Shown: in pieces, positions 20,681 to 39,800 of the stretch
Position numbering within the stretch: position 1 is the first letter of the stretch
Layout: each line of letters starts with the position of its first letter
IMG/VR virus record: IMGVR_UViG_3300028483_000002
Location: 1 to 64,000 of that record
Origin: a virus
Lineage: Duplodnaviria > Caudoviricetes
Length of the DNA: 64,000 bases
Reading direction: 5' to 3' (one strand)
The notes under the pieces: generated by a model
What the model was told of the DNA's origin: nothing
The model's database searches: none
The model's input: the letters and a program-made list of their open reading frames with translations, nothing else
Position numbers and translations under genes: made by a program

Positions 20681-22126
20681 CTATCTATTTTCTCTTACAA
20701 TTGAACAAATTTTAGACCAAACTTCTGGTTTTACAGCCTGTGTTCCAAATTTCATTGATTTTTGGAATTCAGAATTGTAGAACTGAACTTGTTCTGGATT
20801 CATATTCCCTGCTTTTGCAGATTTAACAATTGCTGTTTTGAACTCATCAAAATCAGCCGATGTTGGTTTTCTGTTTGATGCGTGTAAATTTGTAGTTGAA
20901 TCTACAGATTTAGAAATTACAGATTGTCTTTCCATTGGCTGCCCAAGACTTTTTGTTACAGCAATCATTGATTCTTGTAATTCATCAATTGATTTTCTAA
21001 GTTGATTATTTTCTTCTCTTAAAATATCAATTTCAGAACTCATAGATTTAACTAATTCAGTTGCATCAAGATCTTCTTCTTCGTCAATTTCTTCATCATC
21101 TTCTTCGTCAGATTTTTTGACATTAGATTTTTTAATGCACCCCTTTTTTACACCCTTACCTTTTTTAACTTCATCATCTTCTTCATCTACTGTTTCATCA
21201 CCGTCAGATTCAATATATAAATCTTCTTCTTCGTACATTTCATCTTTTGGTTTTGCCATAGATTTTAAAAGTGAATCCATTGTTGCAGCAAAATTACTTT
21301 TCTTCATTTTGACCCCTCCCTGTTTTATTATTTCAAGAGTAGTTTCTCTTGCTTTATCCTCATCAAATCCCTTATCTATAAAGTAATCTTCAATTTCTTC
21401 TTGTGTTTTTAATTCCCCAGAATCAATTGCTTTTACACATTCTTTTATTACTTCTTTTTCAGGATCAATTTTTCCTTCATTTATTTCTAAAAGTTTTACA
21501 GTTTCTTTTTCTAAATCTTCATCTTGCAAGGCTCTACCACCTTCATAGTCAGCTGCGTTTGTTCCATAACCAGCATTCAAACTTTTACAAAAATCCACCA
21601 TTGATATTGACTTTGCGAATTTCGCACTCCCAACAGTCCAATTAACAGGAGAAACGGTTAATGCTAAATCATTCCACATAAAAGAAGTAATTGTTTCACT
21701 GCCATCTGCATTTTTATGTACTTTTGGCATAATCCCACCAATAGACGCTTTTACTCTTGTTGATTTATTTTTTAGAAGTTCAATATATGGTTTTGCAGCT
21801 TCAACACCCTTGTATAAAATACCTTTTACAAAAGTTGATTTTCCTTCTTTGCGAACAGAAATAGGTTCTCCAATAATTTTCTCTTTATGAGTTTCTACTG
21901 AACCATCTTCATTTCTGGTTTTGTGTAAGTGATCATCGGAAATTACCCCATTACTCAGAAAGTAATCTTTTGAATCTTCCAATGCACTCTGTAAAGTGAT
22001 TTGATTTTGTAAATCAAGATTTTCATTACTTGCTTCTACTTCAAAAACATAGTTCCCATTTTCATCTTCTTTACCTGTAATTGATTTACAAATGTTTTCC
22101 TGAATGTAAATGTTCTCATCCATCAT
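20681..22126 (-). CDS. Prohead protease with acidic C-terminal scaffold-like region
   Basis: EASNENLDLQNQ..DDHLH..IIGEP..KASIGG..LALTVSPVN protease motifs; acidic coiled-coil tail. Confidence 0.88.
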   Translation of the reverse strand: MMDENIYIQENICKSITGKEDENGNYVFEVEASNENLDLQNQITLQSALEDSKDYFLSNGVISDDHLHKTRNEDGSVETHKEKIIGEPISVRKEGKSTFVKGILYKGVEAAKPYIELLKNKSTRVKASIGGIMPKVHKNADGSETITSFMWNDLALTVSPVNWTVGSAKFAKSISMVDFCKSLNAGYGTNAADYEGGRALQDEDLEKETVKLLEINEGKIDPEKEVIKECVKAIDSGELKTQEEIEDYFIDKGFDEDKARETTLEIIKQGGVKMKKSNFAATMDSLLKSMAKPKDEMYEEEDLYIESDGDETVDEEDDEVKKGKGVKKGCIKKSNVKKSDEEDDEEIDEEEDLDATELVKSMSSEIDILREENNQLRKSIDELQESMIAVTKSLGQPMERQSVISKSVDSTTNLHASNRKPTSADFDEFKTAIVKSAKAGNMNPEQVQFYNSEFQKSMKFGTQAVKPEVWSKICSIVRENR

Positions 22127-22272: not shown

Positions 22273-24105
22273 CTATAACCCACAAATCCCACATTCATTC
22301 AAAACTTCTTCAACCTTAAAAGCAATTGAATTAAACAATTCCGGATTTTCTGCTGAATAATCTGAAAACAATGATTCGTTATTAATTTCTTCAATGACTT
22401 CATCTTCATCTTCATCTTCAAAATCATTACAGAACATAATAATATCTTCTAAAGATTTTTTTATATCATTTGTATTGATAATACGATTTTCTAACTCAGC
22501 ACCATTTTCTATTGGTAGTAAAACAACCGCTTTATTTCCACTTTCAAATTTCACTCTGCTTTTGTTATCTCCAGGAATAACTTGCATCTTTACATTACTT
22601 AATGGACCTAAAAAGTTTTGAACAGTCTTTAGGTAATCAGTATTAAAATATCTATCCCCTAGTTTTATAATTGAAAACTCTTTTTCTTCTTTCCCGTTAT
22701 AATCTTTTCCTGTTACAACAGTTTTAGGAGCTGCTTTAATAATTGCATCAATACCATCTGGTATAGCACTTTCTTTCTGACCGTCTATTACAAATACTTT
22801 ATCCATATTAGTGATTTTATCTGTTTTAGTAGGTTCTTCAAATTTTTCTCTGCTACATAACATCACCTTTCCATCTGTTGTAATAGTCCAATCTTCTCCA
22901 TCTATGTTATAGTTATGTTTTGCAAAACGTTTTCCTTGATCTGCATTACTGGCTTTTTTTATTGCTTTCTTCTCAAAATCATCAAAAGTCTTTTGTTGTT
23001 TAGGTGTCATTTGATTCTGTTGTTTTTCTTCTTTATTTTCTTGGAAATACCCATCATCATTTATTTCCAAAGCTCCGCCTTTATAACTTTCCCAAATTTT
23101 TCTTGCAACATTATGATTAACTAATTTTGCCCACTCTTTTGCAATTTCATCAAGAGAAATTTCACTTTTTCTATCAGCCATATATTCAATAAACTTATCA
23201 ATACTACCTTTAAAATCTTCCACATGAGAATTTGCATATCTTTGAATTGTCGTAATTGGTTTTTTAAGCATTTTTTCTGTTGATAAAATTGTTTTATCAG
23301 AAACTTCGGTAACATAATCAATTTGTTTATCTGTAGCAAACTTTCCTTTAATTGCTACCTTTGTTTCATCTTTCTTTTCAGTTGATTCATTTAATTTATC
23401 TAGCACTTTTGCATATCCATCTTCACCTATTAAATTTTTTTCATTCTGAATTAGTCTTTGCCTTTTTATATAATCCTCGGCTTCCTTTTTTGTGTTAAAT
23501 TTTTCTACTTCACGACCACCTTCTTCTGTATAAACATAGTATTTGTTACCCATTTTCTGAATTGTAGCTTTGTCGTATTTATTTGGTTTTAAATCTTTCT
23601 TTTCAGTATTTTCAGATTTACCCTTACTTTCAATCTTTCCAGATTGTCTATCTACTTCTGCCCTAATTTTATCCAAAATAGGTAAGTCCATTCCATTTTC
23701 ATCTTGAAATCTTTGTTTATTCTGCATTACAAAGTTCATAAGTTCTTCAACATCATCAATCTTTTTTACTTTTGCAATTAAATGTCCTACAGCAATGTTT
23801 GTACCTCTGCCTTCTTTTTCATACATTCTAGCCCATTTTCCAGGAGCAATCTTTTTATATTTTTTCCCCTTCCAAACACGAACTGTACCAATCCCATAAC
23901 CAGCCTTTTCAATCCATTCACCAGAAATTGATTTTTCCAAATATTTATATTTTTTTTCTTCCTTACTGAATTGTTCTATTGCTTTTTTATAGTCTTTTGC
24001 TTCTTGTTTTTTAAGAATAGCAATTATTTCCTGTTTGAGTTCATCCAATTTTCTTTTACCAAGTGATTTCCAGATTTCTTTTAATACAGATTTTTGAATA
24101 AGCAT
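22273..24105 (-). CDS. Putative head-packaged protein (shared GYGIGTVR-W domain + clamp-like C-terminal region)
   Basis: 610 aa; KS-motif ends; ~85 aa domain shared with the 33-34.5 kb ORF. Confidence 0.6.
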   Translation of the reverse strand: MLIQKSVLKEIWKSLGKRKLDELKQEIIAILKKQEAKDYKKAIEQFSKEEKKYKYLEKSISGEWIEKAGYGIGTVRVWKGKKYKKIAPGKWARMYEKEGRGTNIAVGHLIAKVKKIDDVEELMNFVMQNKQRFQDENGMDLPILDKIRAEVDRQSGKIESKGKSENTEKKDLKPNKYDKATIQKMGNKYYVYTEEGGREVEKFNTKKEAEDYIKRQRLIQNEKNLIGEDGYAKVLDKLNESTEKKDETKVAIKGKFATDKQIDYVTEVSDKTILSTEKMLKKPITTIQRYANSHVEDFKGSIDKFIEYMADRKSEISLDEIAKEWAKLVNHNVARKIWESYKGGALEINDDGYFQENKEEKQQNQMTPKQQKTFDDFEKKAIKKASNADQGKRFAKHNYNIDGEDWTITTDGKVMLCSREKFEEPTKTDKITNMDKVFVIDGQKESAIPDGIDAIIKAAPKTVVTGKDYNGKEEKEFSIIKLGDRYFNTDYLKTVQNFLGPLSNVKMQVIPGDNKSRVKFESGNKAVVLLPIENGAELENRIINTNDIKKSLEDIIMFCNDFEDEDEDEVIEEINNESLFSDYSAENPELFNSIAFKVEEVLNECGICGL

Positions 24106-24136
24106 TTTATTTTCTCCCCTAAAATAATTTTAAAAC

Positions 24137-24242
24137 AAAAAAAGCAGCCACAACTATAAAAGTTATGACTGCTCTTTTGAACACATCAAATAAACACATT
24201 AAATATAATTATATTGTTATAATATATTTAAAAAAAGTCAAT
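24137..24242 (-). promoter_or_regulatory. Late leader L4
   Basis: TTGACT; GATGTGTTCAAAAGAGCAGTCAT..GTGGCTGC-T7 before the 610 aa gene; -10 spacing imperfect. Confidence 0.7.
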
Positions 24243-24274
24243 ATCAATTTTCTTTCAACTTTTCATAAATCAAA

Positions 24275-25435
24275 TTAATATTCCCCTTTTTTATATTTTT
24301 CCAAAATAGAACTAGATGATTCTATTTTTTCCCTGCCACCTACCCCAAAGCACAAATCAACCCCTAAAGATTCACACAAATCGCATTCCGGAACATTCTT
24401 ATATTCGGATCTATCCCCACCATTGCAAAATGATAATTTTGCCATAGGATATTTTTCTCTAATTTTTGACAATGCAACTTTTACAGTTCCGTCAACATCA
24501 AAATCATCATAAATAACATCTACAACACCTTTTATTGAACGCAAAACAGCTTCCCTAGATTCACGCTGTAATAATGGCTGATGTTTTCGTTCTTGTAACC
24601 ATTCATCACTATTCATAATTACTATTACACCGTCTTTTGATATTTTTGCGGCCTCTTTGATTAATTCAATATGACCTTTGTGCAATGGATCAAACCCGCC
24701 AGAAACGATGCTATATTTTTTTTCTTCTACCTCAAAACATAATTCTTGTGCATAAGGAAGCGACCTTGCCCAGTAAATAAAATCCTTACTCCATTCTGTC
24801 AACTTGTGAAATCGTCTTTGTCCTACAGAACACATATTCAAAAGATTTTCATAATTCATTGTTACAGTTCTTTTCTGTAACCAACTTTCTGGAAGCAACC
24901 TGATAAGTTCTTTCCAATAGCGTTTGTCTTTTGTTTCAAGGTATATCTTTCTTAATCTTTCTAGTTGACCTATATGTTCTTCCCAATAATCATCAAAAAA
25001 GGAATAAGGTAGAGAAATATGGTCACAACTACCCATAAAGTCATCCATTTCAAAACAATACTTCGTTATTGGAGTATTTGCTAACTTGTGCATTGTGCTT
25101 GTACTGTTTGCAACGGTTCCAACTTTGTAAGTCGAAAATTCTTTCCACCAGTACAATGGAGCTGTAATTGTAACTTCAACTTGTATTTGTCTAAGAAACT
25201 TTCTATGCTCACTTCCTGCTTTTATAAGTGTTTGTGCAAGTTTCATATCGTTTTCACCAATTATCGCATACTCGCAAATATTATTGTTTTTATGCAAAAT
25301 AACCATATCATTAGTAACGTCATTTAGGGAACAAAATCCAAACTTACTGTCGATTTTATCCCAACTGTTTTTTGGATTTCTCATACCATATAAAGCGTTC
25401 TCAAAACCACAAACTCTTGTTCTATCAAATTTCAT
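24275..25435 (-). CDS. ThyX-like domain fused to HIGH-family (cytidylyl/adenylyl)transferase
   Basis: N-terminal HRKFLRQIQV..APLYWWKEF..STSTMHKL (ThyX-like phage family); C-terminal SGGFDPLHKGH, NSDEWL, NGGDR, KIESSS. Confidence 0.75.
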   Translation of the reverse strand: MKFDRTRVCGFENALYGMRNPKNSWDKIDSKFGFCSLNDVTNDMVILHKNNNICEYAIIGENDMKLAQTLIKAGSEHRKFLRQIQVEVTITAPLYWWKEFSTYKVGTVANSTSTMHKLANTPITKYCFEMDDFMGSCDHISLPYSFFDDYWEEHIGQLERLRKIYLETKDKRYWKELIRLLPESWLQKRTVTMNYENLLNMCSVGQRRFHKLTEWSKDFIYWARSLPYAQELCFEVEEKKYSIVSGGFDPLHKGHIELIKEAAKISKDGVIVIMNSDEWLQERKHQPLLQRESREAVLRSIKGVVDVIYDDFDVDGTVKVALSKIREKYPMAKLSFCNGGDRSEYKNVPECDLCESLGVDLCFGVGGREKIESSSSILEKYKKGEY

Positions 25436-25863
25436 TTCTTTTCTCCTTTTATAAAATCTTCTGCATTTTGTCTTGCATATTCGTGAGAGTTATTTAACAA
25501 ATCTTTAATAATCGCTTTTGCATATTCCAAATCTGTTTTTAACTCTTCAATTCTATTTGACCATTCAATTTCTCTTTCATTAGCCCAATCTAACGATTGT
25601 TTTAAGTCTGTGTTATACTCTTTTATTTGCTCATTTTCTTCCATCACTTTTTGATTAATGAGTTCAAGTTCATCACAGTGTTCTTTTAATTCTTTAAACA
25701 ACTTTGTGTTTTGTTCGTTTTTTTTACATAACTTTTCAACTGTTTTTCGACAACTCCAAACACCACATTCTAAATCTATAAGATATTTATTCTCATCTGC
25801 ATAATCTTCTCTTACTGGTTTTTCAGGACAAAATTTAAATGCAGGACAATTTGTACAAATCAT
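25432..25863 (-). CDS. Hypothetical protein (Cys motif + coiled coil)
   Basis: 143 aa, overlapping start/stop with neighbours. Confidence 0.6.
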   Translation of the reverse strand: MICTNCPAFKFCPEKPVREDYADENKYLIDLECGVWSCRKTVEKLCKKNEQNTKLFKELKEHCDELELINQKVMEENEQIKEYNTDLKQSLDWANEREIEWSNRIEELKTDLEYAKAIIKDLLNNSHEYARQNAEDFIKGEKK

Positions 25864-26237
25864 TCTTCCACTCCTAATTGTTTAAATACTTTTTGCATTT
25901 TAGGAAATTGTTTCGCAAACCAATCTGTCATTTCTTCATTCGTAGCCCAATCACAATTTTCCCATAAACCACATTCAAATAAGAAGGCGTGAATTATTTC
26001 GTGTCTAAAAACTGACGGTATATGTCTTTCTAGACCACCTGCAATAGAAGGGGCTTTCTTGTATTCTTCATCATATAAATCACTGTTTATATGAATTTCT
26101 TTAAGAAACCTTTCTACATATCCATCTGCACGTGTCATTTTTGGGTTACATTTTTCGCTATCGTAAAAAATTTTGTATTTAACTCCTAAAACATTAACTT
26201 CTTTAGGTAATTTATTTGTACTAGTTTTTTTTCTCAT
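25860..26237 (-). CDS. Small HExxH metallopeptidase-like protein
   Basis: FRHEIIHAFL..NEEMTDWF. Confidence 0.65.
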   Translation of the reverse strand: MRKKTSTNKLPKEVNVLGVKYKIFYDSEKCNPKMTRADGYVERFLKEIHINSDLYDEEYKKAPSIAGGLERHIPSVFRHEIIHAFLFECGLWENCDWATNEEMTDWFAKQFPKMQKVFKQLGVEE

Positions 26238-26431
26238 TATTTCATTCTCCAGTTACTTAAATTTTCGCAATCACAACCTTCAAATTCAAAAAGTTTTGTA
26301 TAATCAATACAATTTTCGCAACATCTAAGATTTTTAATAATTTCTTTTAATTCTTTAATCTCATCTTCCTTTTGTTTTAGTAAAGTTTCGTTATTCGTGA
26401 TTAAATTCTTCACAATCAAATTCAACTTCAA
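26237..26431 (-). CDS. Hypothetical protein (coiled coil + CCxxC)
   Basis: 64 aa; related to motif in 41606-42067. Confidence 0.5.
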   Translation of the reverse strand: MKLNLIVKNLITNNETLLKQKEDEIKELKEIIKNLRCCENCIDYTKLFEFEGCDCENLSNWRMK

Positions 26432-26651
26432 TAAGACGTTTTTTAATTTCAGCGTTAAGTTGTTTTTCGTTTTTCAAATCCTCTATTAATTTTTCATTTT
26501 TAGATTTTTCCCTCGATAAATCAGATTGTAGTTCATATATGCGTTTTGCAAGGCTTTGTTTTTCTTGTTTTAATTCTTCATCAAGTTTTTGATATTCAGC
26601 AAATCGAACCCAAGACTTGTCATTGAATACTACTATTTCTATATCTTTCAT
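26391..26651 (-). CDS. Hypothetical coiled-coil protein
   Basis: GGAGGAGG RBS before ATG 26651 (MKDIEIV..). Confidence 0.55.
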   Translation of the reverse strand: MKDIEIVVFNDKSWVRFAEYQKLDEELKQEKQSLAKRIYELQSDLSREKSKNEKLIEDLKNEKQLNAEIKKRLIEVEFDCEEFNHE

Positions 26652-26655
26652 TTGT

Positions 26656-27012
26656 TTAATATCCTCCTCCACACAAACAGTCATACCAAGAAATATTTTT
26701 ACTAGACACAGATTTTCTAGATTGATAATTCTTGTAATTCTTCTGATTAAAATGCTCTTCCACTTTTTCGATTTCATTTACGACGCAGTAAGTAGCCATA
26801 TAAAAAGCAGCCTGCCAGCTTTTTCGTTCAAAAGATAAAGGCAACCCTGCTTCAATCGAACATCCAAGAGAATTAAGTTTGTTAATATCTCTCTCTGATT
26901 TTGACAATAACCATTTAGCTTTATTAATTGTGCCACTAGGATTACGATGATGTTCTAAATAGTTTCTTTTTCCAAAAGTAGTTGTATAAGGTTTAATTAT
27001 TGTTACTGCCAT
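26656..27012 (-). CDS. Hypothetical protein
   Basis: 118 aa ORF in operon context. Confidence 0.5.
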   Translation of the reverse strand: MAVTIIKPYTTTFGKRNYLEHHRNPSGTINKAKWLLSKSERDINKLNSLGCSIEAGLPLSFERKSWQAAFYMATYCVVNEIEKVEEHFNQKNYKNYQSRKSVSSKNISWYDCLCGGGY

Positions 27013-27015
27013 ATA

Positions 27016-27333
27016 CTAATCCTTGAATTTTGCAATTTCTTCTTCTGTTACACCCATACTTATTAACAATAAAACACAATAGCCAATAATATCTGCTACA
27101 TCGTTTACTCTTGGTTTTTCGTCTGTATTAGATTTAATTCTGCCAATTTTATCGTCAAGTCTAATTAAAATAGAATTTGTGGCATCTCCCTTGTAAAAAA
27201 TATTATTAGGATTCAAGGCAGAATCACCATATTTGTGATTTTTATATAGCAACAAATCCTGCATTGCATTTGTGATTTTTTTAATTTTTTCTTGCGTACT
27301 TTCACAAAAAGGATAAATATTATTTTCAATCAT
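27016..27333 (-). CDS. Nucleotide modification associated domain 1 (Nmad1/DUF1599-like)
   Basis: LLYKNHKYGDS..ILIRLDDKIGRI..DIIGYCVL. Confidence 0.8.
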   Translation of the reverse strand: MIENNIYPFCESTQEKIKKITNAMQDLLLYKNHKYGDSALNPNNIFYKGDATNSILIRLDDKIGRIKSNTDEKPRVNDVADIIGYCVLLLISMGVTEEEIAKFKD

Positions 27334-27491
27334 GATTTCTCCTTAAAATACCTGGTATAAATTTTATCTTTCAACGAACCTAATAAAATTCTGGCACCAG
27401 GTAAGCCAAAAATAATTTTAATATAAGTTTTTTTTGTGGTGGTTACTTCTCCACACAGTTTTTTTGAACAATCAACGATTGTTTTATATGT

Positions 27492-29174
27492 CTAACAACT
27501 TGGCAGCCCAAGAAGTGAAACACCTGAATCAATTCCAACTTGAAAATTAGACTTCCAAATACTGTTTATTTCTTGTTCTGAAAGATCCATTTCTTTCATG
27601 GCCTCTGTTTTATTTTGAACCCATCCGTTTATTCTTGCCATTTCAACGTTTAACTTTTGCATAAACTCTTTACAAAACTTTACATGTCTATTACCGTTTT
27701 TATATAGCTTAATGTTTGCAAAAAGTTTTCCATCAGTTGTATAAACATCAAAATCATTCCAATCGCTTTCTTTTACAGTTTCGTATTTATCTGGAAATGT
27801 AATCTGTGTTTTAAATCCTAGATTTTCTGCAATAATTAAAGTGTCTTGTACAAACTCAATTGCACTTCTATCAATTCTGCAAGAGTTACTTCCCCAACCA
27901 TATTCAAAGTTTCTCCAACCTTTAACTACAATCCTGTAATCTAATTGAAAATACTTTGCTTTTTTCATTCTTTCTTTTTTATCATCCCCATAAAAATGCT
28001 TAGTTTCATCAAATGTATCTTTGATATATCGCCAATCATCTTCATTCCAACGTTTATTTGATTTATAACGGTGAATTGTTTTTGTGTTGCATAAACTAAA
28101 GAAATATTCTGTTATCTGCTCGTCAAAAAGTGTATTGGAATGTTTAATCATCCATACTGTAAGTTGAACAATATTTTTTAATGTGAAATCAATGGCTGTG
28201 TTGTCATTCAACCTATTGATAACTTTCTCTCTACCTGTTGATGTTAGCCGACTTGTAAGTTTGTCATATTTTTTGAAAAGTAAATCCCAATAAATATGTT
28301 TCAAACCTTGCAACCTTTCTTTTAGGGCAGCTTTTAATCCAGGAATATCAATTTTTAATTCCTTTAATAAGTCATAATCAAGTTCTTCCAATTTTCTATA
28401 GTTTCTATAGAGTTTTTCCATATCTTTGTTATAGAACTCTACTAGCATTTCTGCTGTATCACCCTTTTGGATAATTTCATTTTTAAGATTTTCTTCTGTT
28501 TCCCTTCTGTATGATGTTTCATACTGTCTGTTTTTATCTGCATCAATTTTGAAAGTTTCCTCGAACCACAAATCAAAAGGATCTGTTGGTTTATTATCAT
28601 AACTTTTGTTTTGATACATATAAGGGGCAGGTGTAAGCACAATCAAGTCTACAGTTGCTCTTGCTTTTCTTTCAGCTTCTAAAAAATCATAAGTTCCAAT
28701 AATTTGATATTTGAACTTTCTTTTTTCAATTGCATCAATCAACTTTTCATTATTTTTCCATCGACTAGGAATTACTAAAGCAATTTTTTCTGCATTGCCT
28801 TGTTTTATGATTTTTTCAGTCCAAATTTCAAATTCTGAATAAGGTGGATTACAGAAAATCATATCCACTTTTTTATCAATTAAAGTTTGTTCGTGAAAAT
28901 CTGAACCTAAAAGTACAATATCATCTGGGAGATTTGCTGCAAGAATGTCAGATTTTTCAATTCCATATTTTGTAATATATTTAAATTCTTCACAATTACA
29001 AAACTTTTCAAAAAATGAGCCATTACCACAACCAATATCTAAAACTTTTCTAGGAATTTTTTCATATTTCAAATGTTTTTTTAACGCCTCTACAATTTCT
29101 GTTGTAGTAGGATAAAATTCAAAATCTTCACACCACTGTTTAAGTTCTTTAACAATTGTCGATGTTCTTTTCAC
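27492..29174 (-). CDS. N6-adenine DNA methyltransferase, DUF4942-like
   Basis: FEFYPTT, VLDIGCGNG, IFCNPPYS motifs; C-terminal KLYKNGNRHVKF; GTG start. Confidence 0.85.
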   Translation of the reverse strand: MKRTSTIVKELKQWCEDFEFYPTTTEIVEALKKHLKYEKIPRKVLDIGCGNGSFFEKFCNCEEFKYITKYGIEKSDILAANLPDDIVLLGSDFHEQTLIDKKVDMIFCNPPYSEFEIWTEKIIKQGNAEKIALVIPSRWKNNEKLIDAIEKRKFKYQIIGTYDFLEAERKARATVDLIVLTPAPYMYQNKSYDNKPTDPFDLWFEETFKIDADKNRQYETSYRRETEENLKNEIIQKGDTAEMLVEFYNKDMEKLYRNYRKLEELDYDLLKELKIDIPGLKAALKERLQGLKHIYWDLLFKKYDKLTSRLTSTGREKVINRLNDNTAIDFTLKNIVQLTVWMIKHSNTLFDEQITEYFFSLCNTKTIHRYKSNKRWNEDDWRYIKDTFDETKHFYGDDKKERMKKAKYFQLDYRIVVKGWRNFEYGWGSNSCRIDRSAIEFVQDTLIIAENLGFKTQITFPDKYETVKESDWNDFDVYTTDGKLFANIKLYKNGNRHVKFCKEFMQKLNVEMARINGWVQNKTEAMKEMDLSEQEINSIWKSNFQVGIDSGVSLLGLPSC

Positions 29175-29186
29175 ATTTTACTCCGT

Positions 29187-29210
29187 TTAAGTATTAGTTC
29201 TAATACTTTT
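29187..29210. promoter_or_regulatory. Operator B palindrome between MTase and divergent XRE gene
   Basis: AAGTAT-TAGTTCTA-ATACTT; near-identical sites at 22230-22253 and 54813-54836. Confidence 0.7.
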
Positions 29211-29289
29211 TATAAAGTATAGCATATTAAACGTTTTGTCAACAAAAAGTTTAGTAATTTTTATTACACTTTATGCCGATAATATTATT

Positions 29290-29499
29290 ATGAATTTAGA
29301 AACACAAGAATTTTGGATTAGAGTTAACAAATTAACAAAAGAAAAGAAACTTACACAAATCAAACTTTGTGAAAAATGTAACATTGCGTTGCCCACTTAC
29401 AAGGGATGGATAATGAGAGGTATATATCCAAACGCAAAGCAGGTTGTAGACATGGCAAAAATCTTAGAGACAACACCTGATTTTTTGGTCTATGGGTAA
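29290..29499 (+). CDS. XRE-family HTH regulator 1
   Basis: LTQIKLCEKCNIALPTYKGW..YPN..VDMAKILETTPDFLVYG; ATG 29290. Confidence 0.88.
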   Translation: MNLETQEFWIRVNKLTKEKKLTQIKLCEKCNIALPTYKGWIMRGIYPNAKQVVDMAKILETTPDFLVYG

Positions 29500-29563
29500 A
29501 ATATTTTATTGACAATTAAAATATTTTATATTAATTTAAGTTTAATTATTACGTTGTAATAAT

Positions 29564-29610
29564 TAAGGTTGGTAAAAAGAGTCTCCGTTCTGTTTACCAA
29601 CCTTTTTTTA
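29564..29610. terminator. Intrinsic (likely bidirectional) terminator between XRE1 and the large polyvalent gene
   Basis: AAGGTTGGTAAA..TTTACCAACCTT followed by a T run. Confidence 0.7.
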
Positions 29611-29614
29611 ATTT

Positions 29615-32600
29615 TTAATTAATTCTGATATAAAATCTGCCATTCTTAATATAGAATAGTGATTTTTTTACAGTTTTTGGTTTTAATTCCTTTTCAACCT
29701 TTTTCAATTCTGCTTCGTATGTAGAAATCTTTCCTGGTAAGGTTTTTAGATTTTCCTGTGCTTGTTTTAAGTAATACTCACCATTGTAATAATTTGTATT
29801 ACCAGAATATCTTTCAACATCTTCTTTTGCACTTGCCAATTGTTTTTTCATATTAGTAACAGAATTTTTAAGTGCAGCTCTTTTTACCTGATTGTAATAA
29901 GGATTTGATGGGCTGATAGTAATACTATCTTTCTCAAAATAATCAGTCATAATATCTGAATTATTCTCTACTTTATCCGTTTCTGAACTTAAAAAACCTA
30001 ACGATGAACCATACCTGTCTGAATGTACTTTTATTGGACCATTTACATCCCCAATACCATAATAAACAGAAACGTATTCCCCATCAGGTTTTCTAATTCC
30101 GTTTACAGTAAACTGATATGGTTTTACTTCTTTGGCTTTTGCTTTGGCTTTTTCTTTTAATTTTTCGTCAATAGTTGTAAGTTCAATTTTTACATTTTCG
30201 CCATTTTCACCATTTTGTTTTCTGTATTCATATCTGTAATTTGGATTACTGTGATAAGAATGGTTTAGCGGCCAACTTCCTCCATAAGACTTAGATTCAG
30301 AACCGTCTTTGTTTAATTTAATTAGATTAAAATGAGTTCCATTATTGGCAACATTTCCAATTCTGAAAAGACCATTTTCACCTTTTGTGTAAGAGTTAGA
30401 AATTTTGACAATATCACCTTCTTTTATTTCTTGTCCTGTAGTTGTGTCTTTTACTTTAGAAACAACATTACCGTTTACTACTTTTAAGCCATTTTTTTGA
30501 GCTTCCAGAATTCTTCCAATTTCTTGAACATTTTTCCATTGTTCTTCATCTTTTGGATCTTTTCTATGCCCCCAATATGAATACCCAGTTTTTGTTTCAT
30601 ACAACTTAGTCATAACATCATGAGAAGATTGTGTTTTTAATTCTCTTTCAATATCTGCAAGAGTTATCCTTGATGGTAAATTACCAATTACAGATGGAGC
30701 AAAAATACCGGCACTCTGTTGATAACCTGCAATAAGTTCATCTAACATATCAGCCTTTGCTCTTTTTTCACCAAGTTCTTTTCCGCTACCGTCAGATGTT
30801 ACAATATCATACATTTCTTTTGAATCTGGTACAGAAATTTTATCTCTTAACTTTTTAATTTCATCCAAAGATAATTCAGCAAAATCGTTTTTGTAATCTT
30901 CCCTAGTTTTGTTATATGAATCGTTGTATTCATCCCATCTATTTGATTCTAAACGGTACTGTTCCATTTCTTTATCTTGGTTATATTGTTTTTCTGCTTC
31001 ATCAATTGCACCGTGTTCCAAAGAATTAGTTGTTCTATTACGCAATTCATCAAAGAATTTATCACCAACAGTTTGATTGTTTTTAATCCTATCAAGAATT
31101 CCGTTTTTCATTTTCCATACTTCGTCTTGACGTTTTCTATTCTCAATAATTTTATAAAGTTCAGAATAATTACCGTCTAATAATAATTGTCCTTCTGTAT
31201 GGTAATTTTCATCTTCCAATAACGAAAAGATTTTATATAATTCAACAGTATCACCATTATGAATTGCATTAGACCAACGATGTACATAAGATTCTAATAA
31301 ATCAGTAGTAATACCATGTTCCCATTGTTTTTCTCTTTCATCTTTAATATTTTCCCAAATATTTTGAAGCTCTTCTTTTGAAAAATCTTCAACAATGTCT
31401 TTATATTTTAGTTTTTTTTGTTGCCCACGTTCATCTAAGAAATCTTTTTTTGCAACAAATTTACCACCATTATCATATTGTTTTTTCAAATCCAATAAGA
31501 AAGTAGATAAATCATCAACTTTAGCACCAGCAATAATATTAACAAGATTATTCATAAACAATGGGTCTCTTTTTATGCTATTTGCCATTAATCTAGCATA
31601 ATTTCTATCATCCCATTCCCCATTTGAATCTTCATATACTTCTGCTACTTTTCCCATTAGATAATCAAAATTATCTTTACTGATTGTGTAATTTCCAATA
31701 GCAGCGTTTAATGATGTTTGTGGTGTTGAAGTGTTTAGTCCATTATCGGCAGCATTGGTAATTTCCCCACTTTGATAATAAGAATCGAATTCTTCCATGC
31801 TATCAAACTCAATTCTTTCACCATCTTTAGAAGTCATAATTGGAGCATCATTTTTATCAAATCCAACTATAGTCCAAACTTTTCCCTCAAAATTATATTG
31901 ATAACCTTCTTTAATTGGATCTTCAATTACAGTAATATCTTTTTTGGCATTATCATTATTCAATAAAGCAATCGAATTTCCATGTTCTTGTTTTTGCCCG
32001 TTTTCTTCTGCCTCATTAGCGACTTCTTGATTTGTTGGATTAAGTTTCTGTAAATCTTTAACAAATAGTCTAGCAACTTTTCCATCATCAAATTTTACCA
32101 TAACCATTTTATCGCTAACTAAATTTGTAATAGAACCTGTTGCCCCATTAAATGACACTTTATCACCAATGTCAAAATCCAAAGTGTTATTTAATTCAAC
32201 TTTTTTATCTTCTGGAACAGAATTATACATAGAGTAGATTTTTCTCATTAATGAGTTATTCCATTTTGTTTCAAAGTTTTTTTCATCATTAGAAGTTAAA
32301 GTTTGCTTTTCTTTTTTCTCTTGATCAATTATTTTCTGTTTTGAATTAGAAGATTTCTCTTTTTTGTTTGATGGTGTTTTATATCTGTCGCGATTGAATT
32401 TATCACTAAAGAATTTATCCCACACTTTTTTATTGGATAAGTATTCTAAGACGTGAGCCCCAAATTCATTTTTGGTTACACCATAAGCACTTTCTATGTT
32501 ATTTCTAACATAAGCGTCTGTGATTTTTTCTTCTTTAATTCCAAAAATAGCCATCAAAGTTTTTAATGGGCTTTTGAAATCTTTAGGATAAATATAGTTA

Positions 32601-32713
32601 TATCCTTTCCCAGCCTTTTTTGGAATTCTTCTGATGTATTTATGACTTCTTCCTGATTTTTCGATGAAGTTATCCCAATACATTTTTGCAAATGTTTTTG
32701 AAACTGTAAACAT
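29615..32713 (-). CDS. Large polyvalent-type protein (~1030 aa), putative head cargo
   Basis: RBS before ATG 32713; IEKS-GRSHKYIRR..GYNYIY N-terminus, multiple small domains, VKKS-LFYIK C-terminus. Confidence 0.7.
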   Translation of the reverse strand: MFTVSKTFAKMYWDNFIEKSGRSHKYIRRIPKKAGKGYNYIYPKDFKSPLKTLMAIFGIKEEKITDAYVRNNIESAYGVTKNEFGAHVLEYLSNKKVWDKFFSDKFNRDRYKTPSNKKEKSSNSKQKIIDQEKKEKQTLTSNDEKNFETKWNNSLMRKIYSMYNSVPEDKKVELNNTLDFDIGDKVSFNGATGSITNLVSDKMVMVKFDDGKVARLFVKDLQKLNPTNQEVANEAEENGQKQEHGNSIALLNNDNAKKDITVIEDPIKEGYQYNFEGKVWTIVGFDKNDAPIMTSKDGERIEFDSMEEFDSYYQSGEITNAADNGLNTSTPQTSLNAAIGNYTISKDNFDYLMGKVAEVYEDSNGEWDDRNYARLMANSIKRDPLFMNNLVNIIAGAKVDDLSTFLLDLKKQYDNGGKFVAKKDFLDERGQQKKLKYKDIVEDFSKEELQNIWENIKDEREKQWEHGITTDLLESYVHRWSNAIHNGDTVELYKIFSLLEDENYHTEGQLLLDGNYSELYKIIENRKRQDEVWKMKNGILDRIKNNQTVGDKFFDELRNRTTNSLEHGAIDEAEKQYNQDKEMEQYRLESNRWDEYNDSYNKTREDYKNDFAELSLDEIKKLRDKISVPDSKEMYDIVTSDGSGKELGEKRAKADMLDELIAGYQQSAGIFAPSVIGNLPSRITLADIERELKTQSSHDVMTKLYETKTGYSYWGHRKDPKDEEQWKNVQEIGRILEAQKNGLKVVNGNVVSKVKDTTTGQEIKEGDIVKISNSYTKGENGLFRIGNVANNGTHFNLIKLNKDGSESKSYGGSWPLNHSYHSNPNYRYEYRKQNGENGENVKIELTTIDEKLKEKAKAKAKEVKPYQFTVNGIRKPDGEYVSVYYGIGDVNGPIKVHSDRYGSSLGFLSSETDKVENNSDIMTDYFEKDSITISPSNPYYNQVKRAALKNSVTNMKKQLASAKEDVERYSGNTNYYNGEYYLKQAQENLKTLPGKISTYEAELKKVEKELKPKTVKKSLFYIKNGRFYIRIN

Positions 32714-32734
32714 TTTCTCCCCCCCCCTTATAAA

Positions 32735-32815
32735 CAAAAAAGGCAGCTATCAAAAAACAAGTATTATTACTTGAAATTTGATAACTGCCTTTGTTTTAGA
32801 CACATTATTTAATAA
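32735..32815 (-). promoter_or_regulatory. Late leader L5
   Basis: AATGTGTCTAAAACAAAGGCAGTTATCAAA..TTTGATAGCTGCC-T6; promoter boxes weak. Confidence 0.7.
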
Positions 32816-32861
32816 AAGACTATCACATATTTATTAATTTCTCGCTTCTTATAAAAAGAAT

Positions 32862-33032
32862 CTATCTTATTCTTATATCCCCATATTTTTTTAGATATGC
32901 TTTTAACGCATCTACAACCTCTTTAGGCGTATTTTCTTTTAAATTATCTAATGTTTCATCTTTACTTGGATCAATTAAATATTTTCGCCAAGGAAACATT
33001 TTTTCATAATCGCCAGGATTGCTTGTTATCAT
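32862..33032 (-). CDS. Small 56 aa protein immediately after the peptidase gene
   Basis: AGAGGT RBS, ATG 33032 (MITSNPGDYEK..). Confidence 0.6.
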   Translation of the reverse strand: MITSNPGDYEKMFPWRKYLIDPSKDETLDNLKENTPKEVVDALKAYLKKYGDIRIR

Positions 33033-33036
33033 TATT

Positions 33037-34503
33037 TTACCTCTTAATTGCATTATATTCCATTTTTGCAAGTTGTACAATCCTTTTACTAAATGGGCTT
33101 GCGTTTTCGCCATATTGGTATACATCAGCAAAGGCTTCTGCAAATAGTTCCATATCAGTTTCTTCTGCATAATCAGAAATAGTAAGTTTAGCATCTTCAT
33201 AAGACATACCATTTAATTGAGTTTGTCGTATTTGTTCGTATGCTTTTTTACAAATTTCTACATCAGAATACATTCCATTATTTTTTAATAATGCTGCTAA
33301 AACATGAGCTCCTTCATGATACCCAAATGATTCTGCATTTAATTGCTCATCCCCTGCATGAAAATATATATTCTTATCTTCCTCTTTTTTTGTTCCATCT
33401 TCAATTATAAACTTAGATCCAAAACTTATTTCTATTGGTTTTTCATTAATAAATTGAACACACATTATACAATTTTCTCTCGTAATTCCAATTCTTGGGA
33501 TTAATTTTTGAACTAAAGGAAACTCATCAAGAAATTCAAGTAACCCAATAGAACATTTTTTCGTATCTTCAAACATTGCTCTTTTTTTTAAGTCGTCAGA
33601 AACTTCAATGCCATATTTATTTACTATATTTTCATAATCATCAAAGTTTCTTGCTTTATTTAATATATTTTTAGAAGTATCTCTTTTATTATATTCTTTA
33701 TGATAATTTTTAAATAAATCAATTCTTTTTTCAATATAGTTTGCTGCATTTACTACCTTTTTATTAGGAATCCCTTTTGATATTAAAAATTCTGAAACCC
33801 TTTCAATAACATTTTCTGTCGTAACATCTTTGTTTAATATTTTTCGTAATACAGTTTTATATTCTTTTTGAACTAGTTTATCCCCAATAAATAATTTAAA
33901 ATAATTTTGTATAGATTTATTGTTTCCTTTTAGTACACCTTGGTTTGGGAATTTTATAACACTGGTAATAAAATTTTCTCTCTCTTTAGAAATATCAGAA
34001 ATATTATTAAAAGTAGTTTTGCTAGTATTAAGTTTAGATTTACGTTCATTCACAGCATTTTTTAATTCTTCTACAATCGGCAGTAATTTACCATCGCTAT
34101 CCATAAATCTATTTGTATTTTCCATGACAAGTTGCAATAATTCATCAATACTTTTTGCATTTTCAATTTTCTTCTTAATAATTGCAATTGATTGATTTGC
34201 TCCCCTAGAATGCACATCATAGATTTTTCGCCATTTTCCAGGAGCAATTTTTCTGTATTTATGCCCTTTCCACTCTCTAACAGTTCCTATACCATATCCC
34301 CTAGATTTATTAATGCTATATTCAGTTAAAAATGTACGAGCCATTGAATTATCATAATCTTCAATCGCTTTACTAATTATCTTTTCTTCTCTTACTTCAC
34401 TTTCTTCTAAGATTTTTAACAACTCTTTTTTAAAGTGATTCAAAATCCTATTTGAATGTTTGTTTATTAAATTGTCATAAACACTTTTCTTTACTGTAAT
34501 CAT
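33037..34503 (-). CDS. Putative head-packaged zincin metallopeptidase
   Basis: Start 34503 (MITVKKS); shared GYGIGTVR-W domain; C-terminal GYHEGAHV..SDYAE..ELFAEAF. Confidence 0.75.
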   Translation of the reverse strand: MITVKKSVYDNLINKHSNRILNHFKKELLKILEESEVREEKIISKAIEDYDNSMARTFLTEYSINKSRGYGIGTVREWKGHKYRKIAPGKWRKIYDVHSRGANQSIAIIKKKIENAKSIDELLQLVMENTNRFMDSDGKLLPIVEELKNAVNERKSKLNTSKTTFNNISDISKERENFITSVIKFPNQGVLKGNNKSIQNYFKLFIGDKLVQKEYKTVLRKILNKDVTTENVIERVSEFLISKGIPNKKVVNAANYIEKRIDLFKNYHKEYNKRDTSKNILNKARNFDDYENIVNKYGIEVSDDLKKRAMFEDTKKCSIGLLEFLDEFPLVQKLIPRIGITRENCIMCVQFINEKPIEISFGSKFIIEDGTKKEEDKNIYFHAGDEQLNAESFGYHEGAHVLAALLKNNGMYSDVEICKKAYEQIRQTQLNGMSYEDAKLTISDYAEETDMELFAEAFADVYQYGENASPFSKRIVQLAKMEYNAIKR

Positions 34504-34526
34504 TTCATACCCCACCTTAAAATTGT

Positions 34527-37271
34527 TTACAATAATTCCGGGAATACTCTTACCCATGAACCTCTACACCACGGATGAACAGTTGCAATTGGAGCATCAC
34601 CATCCAATTTGCCTTCCCATATCGCATATTTTGCATAAGGATCTTTTATTCTTTCGTTTGGCAATGGAACATCACTCCACAATGCAATAGCACCTTTTAA
34701 TTTTTGGCACTTTTTACAGGTGTTGTCATCTAACACTTCATAGCGTTCAAAATATACCTTTTCTTCTGGTTTGGTGTTGTACACTTCTTCTTTGATATAA
34801 GCTGTATTTGTTGCAATTTGTAATTCTGTATCAGCGATTCGTTGCATATCCCTATTCAAACTTGCGCATTTATCAAATAAGTTTTGAGCCACAACCGACT
34901 TGCTTGATTTGTCTCTTACACCATCAATTATTATTTGTTGGATATTATTTCTCATATCATCTTTAACACGTGTAACTCTTTGAGTTGCAGAATCAATTGC
35001 AACTTGAATTCTTGCAGCCCTTTCTCTAGTGATACTTTCCCCAAAAACATCTTTTATGTTTTTAACACTCTCACTTATCCAATCAACATCTTTTCTTTTT
35101 ATTTTTAATTCAGACAGGTGCATTTTTTTTATTGCAGATAAAGAATTTGTTTTACTTAATCGTTCCAATATAGCACCTAATGCTTCGCCACTCAGAACAA
35201 TTTTTTCACCAATACCAGAATAATTACGATTTAGAAACTTTTCTAATTCTGTAATAAAACGTTGCCATTCTTTAGTTGATATTGGTTTACCATTTTCAGG
35301 ATTGTAAATAACCTTACCTTTCCATTTCAATTTAGCTTTACTTACAATTCTTATATCAGGTAAATCAAAATAAGAAATCACAAAATTATAAATTGCTAAA
35401 GTTTTTTGAGATAATTCTCTAAACAATTTATCTGTCAGTTCTTCTTCGGCCTTGTACAAAAACTTTTCACCTTGTACAGTTTTCATGTTTGTATCTAAAG
35501 ACAATGAAACTTTATGCAGAGCTTTTTCAATTTTTTCTTTGTCAAAATTTGTAAATCTCAAATATAAATTATCATATCTTGTAGATTTATTATCAGATTG
35601 AATATGTTTAATTACAAAAGGTTTATTTTCGTAAATTGCATTAAGAGCCTTTTCTAATTGTTCATACTTTTTTTGTTTGTTATTTTCTGTAATATCAGTT
35701 ATACAAACATCAAAGGATTTATGTATTCTACTACCTTGTTTTGAGAATACAAAAGACTTAAATTGTTCTACAGTTAAAGTTTCCATACTTCCAAAAAATC
35801 CTGGTCTATCATATTGTTTCATATATGCTTTTTTTGCTGCTTCTGCATTTTCAAAACACAACATACATTTATCTTCATCGTATTTATGAGTAACAGGATT
35901 GTTTTGATGAATTACATAAACTTTTTTTGCGTTTTTATCAGGACCAATATAACAATCTACAAAGTCTGAATCAGTCCCTACAGTTCCCCTAATATATCCA
36001 TAATCATAGTGCATTAAAGTTTTCCACTTATGCCCATCTGAATCAACACCACTTCTATAAGTTCCTTTTTTATTTTCAATGGAAATATCCATGCCATAAA
36101 GTTTAGTTCTACCCTGTAATTTATGGCCGGAATAAGTTAAAGATTTTGTTAAAGCCTTATATGCTTTGTACGCAATTACATTTTCTACATCTTGATGCAA
36201 TTGTTCTTCTGCTACAAACCTTGTCAATTTATCATCATACTTCTGAATAACAGAATCATAATTTAAGCCTTTTTTATCACAAAGATGATGTAATTCTACT
36301 TTCCAATCAGTGAATAATGATTTTGTAACATTTTTACTTGACAAATTATTACAATGCACTATATTAATAGATGGAGATAGACTACAATCCGGTTGTAGTT
36401 GTAACGCTTTATTAAGCTGTCTCCCCTTAAATCCCTTGCTATTTTGCAAGGGATATTTTTTTAACAAAAGTTCTACAGAGTAGACTAACTTACCTGTAAT
36501 TTTATATTCCTTAATTGTAATATATGCCATTCCTTTTCTTGTAGATAATTGAATAGGTATATTTCCTCTGTAAATAGATTCTACGTTGTCATCACCTTTC
36601 CTATCTGGATATTTCTTAAAGTTTTCAACATTTTCAACAAGTTCTTTTATCTTTGATGCCGCTTCAAAATGCTCTTTTGTTGAAAAACCATTTAGAACAG
36701 ATTTATTTATAGCTTTATCACAAGATAATTTATCAATAGATTTTTGAGAAAATCTAAATGTTAAATCTTTATTATGAAAGTTAGTCTGTTTATATTTTAC
36801 CATTTCTTTCTTAAATGTATTTCTAAGCTCTGTTCTTAAAAGATATTCATTATGATCAATTTTTAATACTTTCCAAGCCGGAATTTTTTCATTTTCATTT
36901 TCTTTGTTTATAAAAATATAATCGTGAGAACCATTTATATAATATTCATATAAATCATACTTAGTCTTATCTAACTTAAATTTTATTGGTTTTTGTTTTT
37001 CATCGGAAAGACCCTTTAATTTTTTTATTCTTATTCCATAAACATCAGCATCATATTCATATACCCAATGCCCATTTACCCATCTTTTATTACGATATTT
37101 ATGTGATTTTTGTATTTCTTTATCATTTTCAGAATATAAGTCCGATTTTTGCAGATTTTCTGCAAATTCGTCATTTAAATTATCTTTTTTTTCATTTCTA
37201 ACTTGCTTATAACTTTCTAATTTCTTTTTAATTTCTTCTGCAACAGATTTTTCAATTACTATTTTTCCCAT
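34527..37271 (-). CDS. MuF head-morphogenesis protein with N-terminal LPD3/BECR-like and inorganic pyrophosphatase-like domains
   Basis: C-terminal IADTELQ..DDNTCKKC..HPWCRGSW (MuF); GHKLQGR..SIENKKG..HYDYGYIRGT.GTDSDFVDCYIGP (InPase-like); HFEAASKI..YPDRKGDDNV..YITIKE (LPD3-like). Confidence 0.8.
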   Translation of the reverse strand: MGKIVIEKSVAEEIKKKLESYKQVRNEKKDNLNDEFAENLQKSDLYSENDKEIQKSHKYRNKRWVNGHWVYEYDADVYGIRIKKLKGLSDEKQKPIKFKLDKTKYDLYEYYINGSHDYIFINKENENEKIPAWKVLKIDHNEYLLRTELRNTFKKEMVKYKQTNFHNKDLTFRFSQKSIDKLSCDKAINKSVLNGFSTKEHFEAASKIKELVENVENFKKYPDRKGDDNVESIYRGNIPIQLSTRKGMAYITIKEYKITGKLVYSVELLLKKYPLQNSKGFKGRQLNKALQLQPDCSLSPSINIVHCNNLSSKNVTKSLFTDWKVELHHLCDKKGLNYDSVIQKYDDKLTRFVAEEQLHQDVENVIAYKAYKALTKSLTYSGHKLQGRTKLYGMDISIENKKGTYRSGVDSDGHKWKTLMHYDYGYIRGTVGTDSDFVDCYIGPDKNAKKVYVIHQNNPVTHKYDEDKCMLCFENAEAAKKAYMKQYDRPGFFGSMETLTVEQFKSFVFSKQGSRIHKSFDVCITDITENNKQKKYEQLEKALNAIYENKPFVIKHIQSDNKSTRYDNLYLRFTNFDKEKIEKALHKVSLSLDTNMKTVQGEKFLYKAEEELTDKLFRELSQKTLAIYNFVISYFDLPDIRIVSKAKLKWKGKVIYNPENGKPISTKEWQRFITELEKFLNRNYSGIGEKIVLSGEALGAILERLSKTNSLSAIKKMHLSELKIKRKDVDWISESVKNIKDVFGESITRERAARIQVAIDSATQRVTRVKDDMRNNIQQIIIDGVRDKSSKSVVAQNLFDKCASLNRDMQRIADTELQIATNTAYIKEEVYNTKPEEKVYFERYEVLDDNTCKKCQKLKGAIALWSDVPLPNERIKDPYAKYAIWEGKLDGDAPIATVHPWCRGSWVRVFPELL

Positions 37272-39684: not shown

Positions 39685-39709
39685 CTTTCCCTCCCAAAAA
39701 TATTTAAAA

Positions 39710-39800
39710 TAAAAAAAAACAGCCACTTATTCCAAAAAAAATAGAATAAAATGGCTGCTTGTTATAAACACACCTAATATTTAATTCATTTTATAACATT
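39710..39800 (-). promoter_or_regulatory. Late leader L6
   Basis: Extended -10 TGTTATAAA; GGTGTGTTTATAACAAGCAGCCATTTTATTC..GAATAAGTGGCTG-T9 before portal. Confidence 0.75.

Follow-up and report, generated by a model that had tools for sequence, protein, structure and literature searches.

Four large mosaic proteins as candidate polyvalent head cargo of an uncultivated myovirus

Introduction

What do four large proteins, encoded between the portal and the head protease of a phage, have in common, and what are they for? The question is raised by a stretch of 64,000 nucleotides, the first 64 kb of the 73.6 kb IMG/VR virus record IMGVR_UViG_3300028483_000002 (completeness 91%), which was analysed as a whole and is called the window below. 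Its four large minus-strand open reading frames (ORFs) between the portal gene and the gene of a prohead protease fused to a scaffold-like part are named here P610, P1040, P506 and P914.

A prediction from 2017 sees polyvalent proteins as weapons that phages inject, and passages of Iyer, Burroughs, Anand, de Souza and Aravind (2017, J Bacteriol; PMC5512222) give them, together with MuF proteins, as predicted virion cargo. Their loading into the head and their splitting into working units have been worked out chiefly for T4 and P1. We suggest that the four proteins of the window are probably polyvalent mosaic cargo of the head, trimmed or diced by the prohead protease. Polyvalent cargo and internal proteins matured by a protease are already known; an N-terminal module, N1, and two types of C-terminal tail are new, being uncatalogued in Pfam and PHROGs.

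Variable bodies between conserved ends

P610 is encoded at 22273-24105 (610 aa), P1040 at 29615-32737, P506 at 33037-34557 and P914, which we read as a polyvalent head protein, at 34527-37271 (914 aa). The database forms of P1040 (29615-32713, 1032 aa, start MFTVSKT) and P506 (33037-34503, 488 aa, start MITVKKS) begin at inner ATGs. As the initial annotation had noticed, phi-x-K-S/T (phi, hydrophobic residue) stands near the N-terminus of all four: MLIQK↓S in P610, MFTVSK↓T in P1040, MITVKK↓S in P506 and MGKIVIEK↓S in P914, four predicted leaders in which the arrow marks the position of a possible cut.

The N1 module consists of ~165 N-terminal residues common to P610 and P506 (34% identity, E 7e-29 in BLASTP). 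It spans aa 1-165 of P610 (nt 23611-24105), where LIQK↓S, LEK↓S and IEK↓AGYG are found, and nt 34009-34503 of P506. Its sharing had been recognised from the start, but its extent had been put at ~85 aa. P1040 and P914 resemble each other only in a short motif, HKY..G.[WY].Y, which lies below BLAST detection and is conserved in relatives of both. Shared N-terminal domains, first claimed for all four proteins, are thus found in P610 and P506 and reduce to this motif in the other two. In the fuller form KS..HKY..G..Y.Y, which had been ascribed to P1040 and P914, it has exactly two occurrences in the window, one in each of them. P1040 carries it within an N-terminal module of ~250 aa (31964-32713) that holds IEK↓S..HKYIRR..G.GYNYIY, and P914 carries it at aa 55-73 (nt 37053-37109) as HKY..G.W.Y.Y.

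A single address element common to all four proteins was considered and is a weak lead. N1 compared with the HKY family gives an hhalign P of 0.02 and a probability of 2%, even though the K-S sites and the KY..G.W..Y motif do fall together in that alignment.

Searching with P610 residues 55-165 against 1.84 billion cluster representatives gave N1 matches in 394 protein clusters at E ≤ 0.001, 63 of them at E ≤ 1e-30, in proteins of 134-2321 aa. An uncatalogued domain of about 400 protein clusters is hereby defined: no family covering N1 itself was found in Pfam (42 members scanned) or in PHROGs. What follows the module varies widely. The Pfam scan of these 42 members returned ddrB-ParB, LPD1, InPase, Zeta toxin, LPD3, SNF2 helicase, PBECR3, ADP-ribosyltransferase (ART) and Eco57I-type methylase, and several relatives pair N1 with HExxH domains. 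The shared domain therefore carries many different C-termini rather than a single fixed one, in line with what was initially proposed.

Positions and sites were counted in 137 proteins that carry the hairpin anchor of N1, a segment in which K, R, W and Y abound. Of the 137, 127 have the module at the N-terminus and 6 have it inside the protein. Among the N-terminal cases phi-x-K-[SA] occurs within the first 14 residues in 84/127, compared with 4% of control windows, and phi-x-K-[SAG] stands directly ahead of the hairpin in every one of the 137, internal copies included. We also note a third, shorter protein (414 aa) in one relative (L009:8308-9552), with the leader LFVKK↓S and the hairpin and without the long helix of N1. 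Reduced forms of the frame thus exist.

Conservation returns at the C-terminus. Thirty-two N1 clusters (454-1277 aa) end in [VI]KK↓SLFD, an acidic stretch and NDYSAEQPELFNS..REA.NR, and P610 has such a tail, acidic and conserved in relatives, from DIKK↓SL onwards (aa 551-610, nt 22276-22455). The N-terminal 250 aa of P1040 match 49 clusters of 589-1804 aa, many of them with LPD1, ART or LPD3. Of the 49 clusters, 44 begin MAKLVILK↓S and finish phi-x-K-[SA]..FIIKNGRFLIRK; the tail of P1040 itself reads TVKK↓SLFYIKNGRFYIRIN (29618-29662). That two of the proteins end after KK↓S, IKK↓S in P610 and VKK↓S in P1040, had been seen correctly. Because N1/P610-type and P1040-type clusters both keep their ends and their K↓S-starting tails, each family is a variable body between a fixed N-terminal frame and a fixed tail, both tails beginning at K↓S. 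Attention had first gone to the N-termini; the conserved C-terminal tails matter equally. One cargo tail ends ..GRFLIRK, which resembles the product side of a cut site.

The relatives compared are five related viral contigs, one of them (G001) complete at 80.5 kb; the locus search with a single protease sequence gave no matches, and the relatives were found with the alignment as query. Five relatives, one of them a Treponema prophage, preserve the order portal, MuF, P1040-like, P610-like, protease, major capsid protein (MCP). G001 has a set of 1215, 1644, 797 and 491 aa in an order that differs from the window, and the P1040 orthologs of related loci measure 1377, 1644, 1334 and 1717 aa. P610 matches the 797-aa protein of G001 in residues 1-246 and 363-606 only, and the 848-aa protein of another relative (L004) in residues 1-163 and the last 30 only. 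In L009 an N1 module replaces the HKY N-terminus on a P1040-like body, and modules of P610 and P914 recur at other positions in other N1 proteins. Hence the relatives keep the ends and swap the middles, and the proteins are modular with variable bodies, as had been supposed.

A lysine motif shared with the capsid protein and the scaffold

The same four-residue pattern recurs in the two head genes next to the cargo. The MCP (19216-20667, minus strand; phrog_752, 1.5e-68) begins MGDIFEQEDFVTTSQNDELEK↓ALNAGYGTNAANYTQGRALQREDLE. From sequence and homology its first 21 aa (20605-20667) are predicted to be a propeptide, ending ELEK↓ALNAGYG, and the mature protein has no further phi-x-K-S/A site. In three relatives the propeptide varies and ELEK↓AL.AGYG is kept. 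The protease gene (20681-22126, minus strand; phrog_1028 'head maturation protease', 1.9e-23) reads ..VDFCK↓SLNAGYGTNAADYEGGRALQDEDLE at residue 181. This junction, FCK↓SLNAGYGTNAA, separates a protease part (aa 1-181) from a scaffold-like, acidic coiled-coil part (aa 182-481), and the whole protein has ten phi-x-K-[SA]-phi sites. The protease gave no match to Pfam Peptidase_S78 and no sequence match in the PDB.

The predicted cut site is anchored by homology to a known mature capsid N-terminus. The phi812 MCP was deposited as a chain of 463 aa containing ..EDVVK↓SFQTGYG (PDB 5lii), and as a 439-aa chain, with the Q of QTGYG in third place, in PDB 9row, 9rox and 9roz. The shorter phi812-type chain therefore starts at S25, after VVK. 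Its first residue in 9row aligns with A22 of the window MCP, and SPO1 Gp6.1 has ALNK↓ALEAGH at the aligned place. We suggest, by homology, that the window MCP is cut after K21. No stated cut site was found in the Herelleviridae literature consulted, and the start of the PDB chain was used instead.

Alongside this, MCP and protease-scaffold share ~35 aa after K↓S/A (LNAGYGTNAA.Y..GRALQ.EDLE; 20605-20667 and 21476-21586), with 51-59% identity. At its beginning, the scaffold part may mimic the N-arm of the mature capsid protein. The same duplication between MCP and protease is present in the Herelleviridae phage phiSA_BS1, with QLSK↓SFQTGYG.. and KFVK↓SFVTGYG...

How special the pattern is was measured by counting phi-x-K-[SA]-phi against composition-preserving shuffles. 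Its density is 6.84 per 1000 aa in the head set and 0.92 in all other ORFs, an enrichment of ~7-fold. The protease-scaffold has 10 sites (0.51 expected), P914 has 9 (0.98 expected), P610 has 4 (0.61 expected) and P506 has 3 (0.60 expected). The pattern is the likely site of the prohead protease: it marks the MCP propeptide at the phi812-type mature N-terminus and fills the scaffold part. The proposal of a K↓S cleavage motif gains from this.

Two further genes show the pattern. A 101-aa ORF just after the MCP (18889-19194, minus strand) has an acidic N-terminal half followed by FNK↓SLINK↓SVV, with 2 sites where 0.07 are expected, and may be another processed head protein. The portal C-terminus (38104-38130, minus strand) reads ..DMNK↓SINK↓SMLFI, the portal of G001 ends INK↓SLLRI, and this end may be trimmed too.

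Bodies of P914, P506 and P610

P914 combines LPD3 (aa 147-257, nt 36501-36833; Pfam 7.2e-08), InPase (Pfam 386-507, 4.5e-43) and a MuF-like C-terminus (aa 775-914, nt 34530-34949). The InPase is bracketed by K376↓S377 in LTK↓SL and K505↓S506 in QFK↓SF, which delimit a piece of aa 377-505 (nt 35757-36143), and both sites are kept in orthologs. The three P914 orthologs are unrelated to one another up to K↓SLTYSG, which puts a recombination boundary exactly at this site. This arrangement suggests that the protease cuts P914 into single domains. The C-terminus reads DDNTCKKCQK...HPWCRGSW, and the gene is located downstream of the portal with two small ORFs between. We take a C-terminal CxxC...HPxCR, here CxxC...HPWCRG, together with a location directly downstream of the portal, to be the signature of MuF/SPP1 gp7. 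P914 agrees with the MuF-linked polyvalent type named at the outset, as LPD3-InPase-MuF with a MuF score below the Pfam cut-off. More broadly, at least two conflict-type domains per polypeptide are found in P914 (LPD3, InPase, MuF), in P506 (N1, predicted zincin) and in relatives.

In passing, the P914 orthologs at L008:2115-5762 (G001) and L013:62-2743 carry a ~340-aa intein (Hint and LAGLIDADG homing endonuclease) inside the InPase at ..DHLD↓C..THN↓C..., where the arrows mark the intein borders; the window copy is intein-free.

The AlphaFold2 (AF2) model of P506 has a mean predicted local distance difference test (pLDDT) of 66.6, and 86-93 at residues 70-160. It consists of four parts: an N-terminal long helix with K-S sites, a three-stranded hairpin (GYGIGTVREWKGHKYRKIAPGKW), a small helical bundle and a C-terminal domain (33040-33651, minus strand). 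In VIA the latter reaches Z 9.5 with the catalytic domain of anthrax LF (residues 561-775; 166 aligned, rmsd 3.7) and Z 7.2 with the Pro-Pro endopeptidases PPEP-1/3. Foldseek is weak (E 0.3), the ESM Atlas places it in the cluster 'Pro-Pro endopeptidase family' with a score of 0.95, and Pfam ATLF gave no match. The HExxH and the downstream Glu helix of M34 are present as HEGAH and ELFAEAF, and both are kept in P0156 (55% identity). We read the domain as a predicted M34-like zincin.

P610 is modelled poorly (mean pLDDT 58), and neither P610 nor P506 gave a useful match to the PDB by sequence. A clamp-like domain may follow the shuffled middle of P610 (aa ~395-546, nt 22468-22923). In VIA the top 50 rows for residues ~442-546 are all sliding clamps (Z 5.2-6.0, 78-92 residues aligned), with pLDDT of 30-65 there and a Foldseek E of about 1. 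The motifs TDG and FN..YL....LLP of P610 are presumably typical of DnaN. Pfam DNA_pol3_beta_3 matches 2 of the 42 scanned N1-family members and not P610 itself, and a PDB profile search of the region returned coiled-coil noise and no clamp. The word 'clamp' has 0 occurrences in the main text of PMC5512222. For the body of P1040 no match was found in Pfam, PDB sequences or the ESM Atlas.

Proposed mechanism

Each of the four proteins has a variable, conflict-type body inside conserved terminal frames: LPD3 and InPase in P914, a predicted M34-like zincin in P506, possibly a clamp-like domain in P610 and nothing recognisable in P1040. The N-terminal frame opens with a hydrophobic leader, short and closing with K↓S, and continues with a helix that has more phi-x-K↓S/A sites and a basic-aromatic beta-hairpin, either KY.K..GKW..Y or HKY..G.W.Y.Y; two of the proteins add the conserved C-terminal tail from a KK↓S site. 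What the sequences show is this architecture, its shuffling in relatives, the enriched and conserved motif, and an MCP site homologous to a mature phi812-type N-terminus; from these, packaging, cargo cleavage, ejection and effector roles are inferred, and the following sequence of events can be proposed.

During assembly the frames would bring the cargo into the procapsid, and P914 might also enter via its MuF part beside the portal. The protease, predicted to be of HK97 type and fused to the scaffold, would then cut after lysine in phi-x-K↓S/A. These cuts would remove the MCP propeptide, degrade the scaffold and strip leaders and tails, and would also split P914 into single-domain pieces such as InPase 377-505. 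At infection the pieces would exit with the DNA and act on host defence or physiology.

A bolder form of this proposal is that the frames (leader, N1 or HKY module, and the two tails) are removable loading tags recognised by the protease-scaffold, so that whatever body stands between them enters the procapsid and is then diced by the protease at phi-x-K↓S/A into single-domain effectors. We consider this conceivable, with the odds against it. Were it true, cargo loading and release would be general and programmable, common to many uncultivated phages of gut and rumen that form one large clade. As it stands, the locus is a testable model with defined frames, a four-residue site anchored to a known mature capsid N-terminus and an InPase bracketed by such sites. 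Should that model be right, one head protease would serve capsid maturation, scaffold removal and effector release, and tags for loading foreign proteins into phage heads would have been named.

Alternative explanations

Several observations weigh against processed head cargo and are gathered here. P1040 is not enriched overall in phi-x-K-[SA]-phi (1 observed, 0.75 in shuffles). Conservation of the ten scaffold sites reaches 98-100% in 121 protease homologs, which is weak evidence, since these homologs form a close-knit family (mean column conservation 0.82). The K-S/A positions that are conserved could be structural. Since 6 of 137 copies are internal, N1 is no strictly N-terminal signal, and it may be a domain with a function of its own, such as DNA binding. 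Phage_Mu_F (PF04233) scores 26.1 bits (E 1.5e-05) on aa 775-870 of P914, below the 29.6-bit cut-off, and 18.3 bits on the G001 ortholog. Finally, the cargo tail is unlike the scaffold C-terminus: scaffold mimicry by the P610-type tail was tried with hhalign and rejected (P 0.13, not above the reversed control). The tail being without scaffold similarity, no targeting mechanism can be read from the sequence.

Some of these points lead to another explanation, in which the proteins are polyvalent effectors that act uncleaved, packaged or not. The K-S/A positions would then belong to helices and linkers, and N1 would be a functional domain instead of an address, for example a nucleic-acid-binding hairpin with a helical bundle. 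The K-, R-, W- and Y-rich hairpin would suit such a role, the internal N1 copies keep the same K-[SA] positions, P1040 shows no excess of sites, and in families as closely related as these conservation alone proves little. What such an explanation has difficulty accommodating is the recurrence of one four-residue pattern at unrelated places, namely the MCP propeptide, the ten scaffold sites, the leaders, the tail starts and the InPase flanks, together with a 7-fold lower frequency of that pattern in non-head ORFs of equal composition. Moreover, the MCP site coincides with a mature N-terminus in the PDB, and tails and leaders start or end exactly at sites despite unrelated bodies. We regard a purely structural role of the sites as unlikely.

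It is also conceivable that the four proteins are late cytoplasmic proteins, with anti-defence, replication or lysogeny functions, which are merely located in the head module and never packaged. A methylase and a cytidylyltransferase, both clearly non-structural, do lie in the same region, and a head-associated (MuF) domain occurs in P914 only. Against this, the synteny from portal to MCP is kept in five relatives including the Treponema prophage, cargo, MCP, scaffold and portal have the site motifs in common, and domains typical of virion delivery, ART, PBECR and ddrB-ParB among them, are found in relatives. We give this explanation only a small chance. That processing is due to an embedded or companion metallopeptidase (MPTase), here the M34-like zincin of P506, rather than to the prohead protease would follow the peptidase-mediated processing of polyvalent proteins that passages of Iyer et al. 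2017 (PMC5512222) propose and would fit the pairing of N1 with a zincin in P506 and with HExxH domains in several relatives, but it is highly improbable, as the site pattern, common to MCP, protease-scaffold and the MCP and protease of Herelleviridae, points to the head protease, and as two related loci, L013/L004 and the Treponema one (L017), each covering part of its contig, encode P610-like and P1040-like proteins and no P506 ortholog.

The gene context, in which terminase, portal, cargo, protease-scaffold, MCP and sheath are found together, counts in favour of polyvalent head cargo processed by the prohead protease.

Neighbouring genes, phage and host

The four large ORFs had been described as lying between protease and portal. 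Their positions and sizes hold, but they do not stand alone: seven unrelated, non-cargo genes (24275-29174, minus strand) interrupt the series between P1040 and P610. They lack the N-terminal module, the leader and the tail, and relatives do not keep them at this position. One of them (24275-25435, minus strand), in the middle of the head module, encodes 386 aa in which phrog_6721, an uncharacterised phage family (E 1.2e-50), is fused to a cytidylyltransferase-like nucleotidyltransferase (PF01467). Another (27492-29174, minus strand) encodes a 560-aa N6-adenine-type methyltransferase with DUF4942 at its C-terminus; some N1-family relatives carry fused methylases. Five small ORFs complete the seven. 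On the other side of the cargo is the portal gene (38104-39726, minus strand; PHROG portal families).

PHROG and Pfam scans identify the window as a myovirus late region, with large terminase (45183-46814), tail sheath (11972-13711), baseplate and fibre genes. Its G+C content is ~30%, and nearly every gene is on the minus strand. The MCP is below 30% identity to that of any named phage, the nearest being SPO1/Twort-like and some Pseudomonas and Bacteroides myoviruses, and in megablast the region matched none of 50,697 phage records.

The host is probably a gut or rumen Treponema, because a 159.5 kb contig of a Treponema sp. metagenome-assembled genome (L017; JAILKS010000025.1) keeps the gene order MuF, P1040-like, P610-like, protease, MCP, and because one protease homolog is likewise labelled Treponema. 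The phage is probably temperate. The contig, with its cargo-protease-MCP synteny as in the window, is likely an integrated prophage; it points to the probable host and is a possible source of inducible virions. The clade, an abundant group of uncultivated phages, appears linked to Treponema.

Comparison with known systems

How does the proposed system relate to those already described? HK97 gp5 is cleaved after lysine, at K103↓S104. Cleavage after lysine by the prohead proteases of HK97 (gp4) and Herelleviridae, predicted likewise for the window, and the duplicated segment after the lysine in MCP and protease of the latter are the likeness to the present case. To our knowledge, neither HK97 nor Herelleviridae have been described as using the lysine site on a set of polyvalent cargo proteins.

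The prohead protease site of phiKZ and SPN3US is S/A/G-x-E. In these phages the prohead protease cleaves many head-internal ejection proteins at one short common motif, and propeptides are lost (PMC10052503, PMC7411985). A short cut motif shared by head-internal proteins and the removal of propeptides are the likeness to what is proposed here; the differences are that these are jumbo phages with a T4-gp21-like protease, and that their cargo proteins are unrelated to ours.

The polyvalent proteins described in passages of PMC5512222 are also large mosaic proteins beside portal and head genes, extensively shuffled and predicted to be packaged and injected, and they share LPD1, LPD3, InPase, MuF, ddrB-ParB, PBECR, ART, SNF2-methylase and zincin peptidases with the window and its relatives. 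Unlike the modules listed there, N1 and both tails of the window are without a Pfam or PHROG model. The processing differs too: the same passages propose an embedded MPTase, whereas we propose the prohead protease acting at phi-x-K↓S/A. Neither a bipartite frame around variable bodies nor domain release by a lysine-specific head protease was found in those passages of Iyer et al. 2017, the wider literature not being surveyed.

In T4, the internal proteins and Alt have an N-terminal capsid targeting sequence that is cut by gp21 at I/L-x-E (Mullaney and Black 1996, as related in passages of PMC12991175 and PMC9024508). According to these passages, the leader is a short N-terminal segment with a site for the head protease itself at its end; it is removed in the prohead, and cargo and DNA are injected together, which is close to what we propose for the window. 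Here, however, the protease is of another family and the site would be K↓S/A instead of E↓, the cargo is far larger and multi-domain and has C-terminal tails as well, and targeting by the leader is predicted.

For capsid targeting in the Dar system of P1, the first 30 aa of DarB are enough (PMC9024508). DarB and DdrB are very large anti-restriction polyvalent proteins with an N-terminal packaging signal, and ddrB-ParB recurs among the N1 relatives. Sequence similarity to the DarB signal was not noticed, no search aimed at it having been made. P1 loading is stepwise and needs Hdf and DarA, and no such helpers were identified in the window. By analogy, the capsid targeting sequence of T4 and the N-terminal signal of P1 DarB are the closest functional parallels to the terminal frames proposed here.

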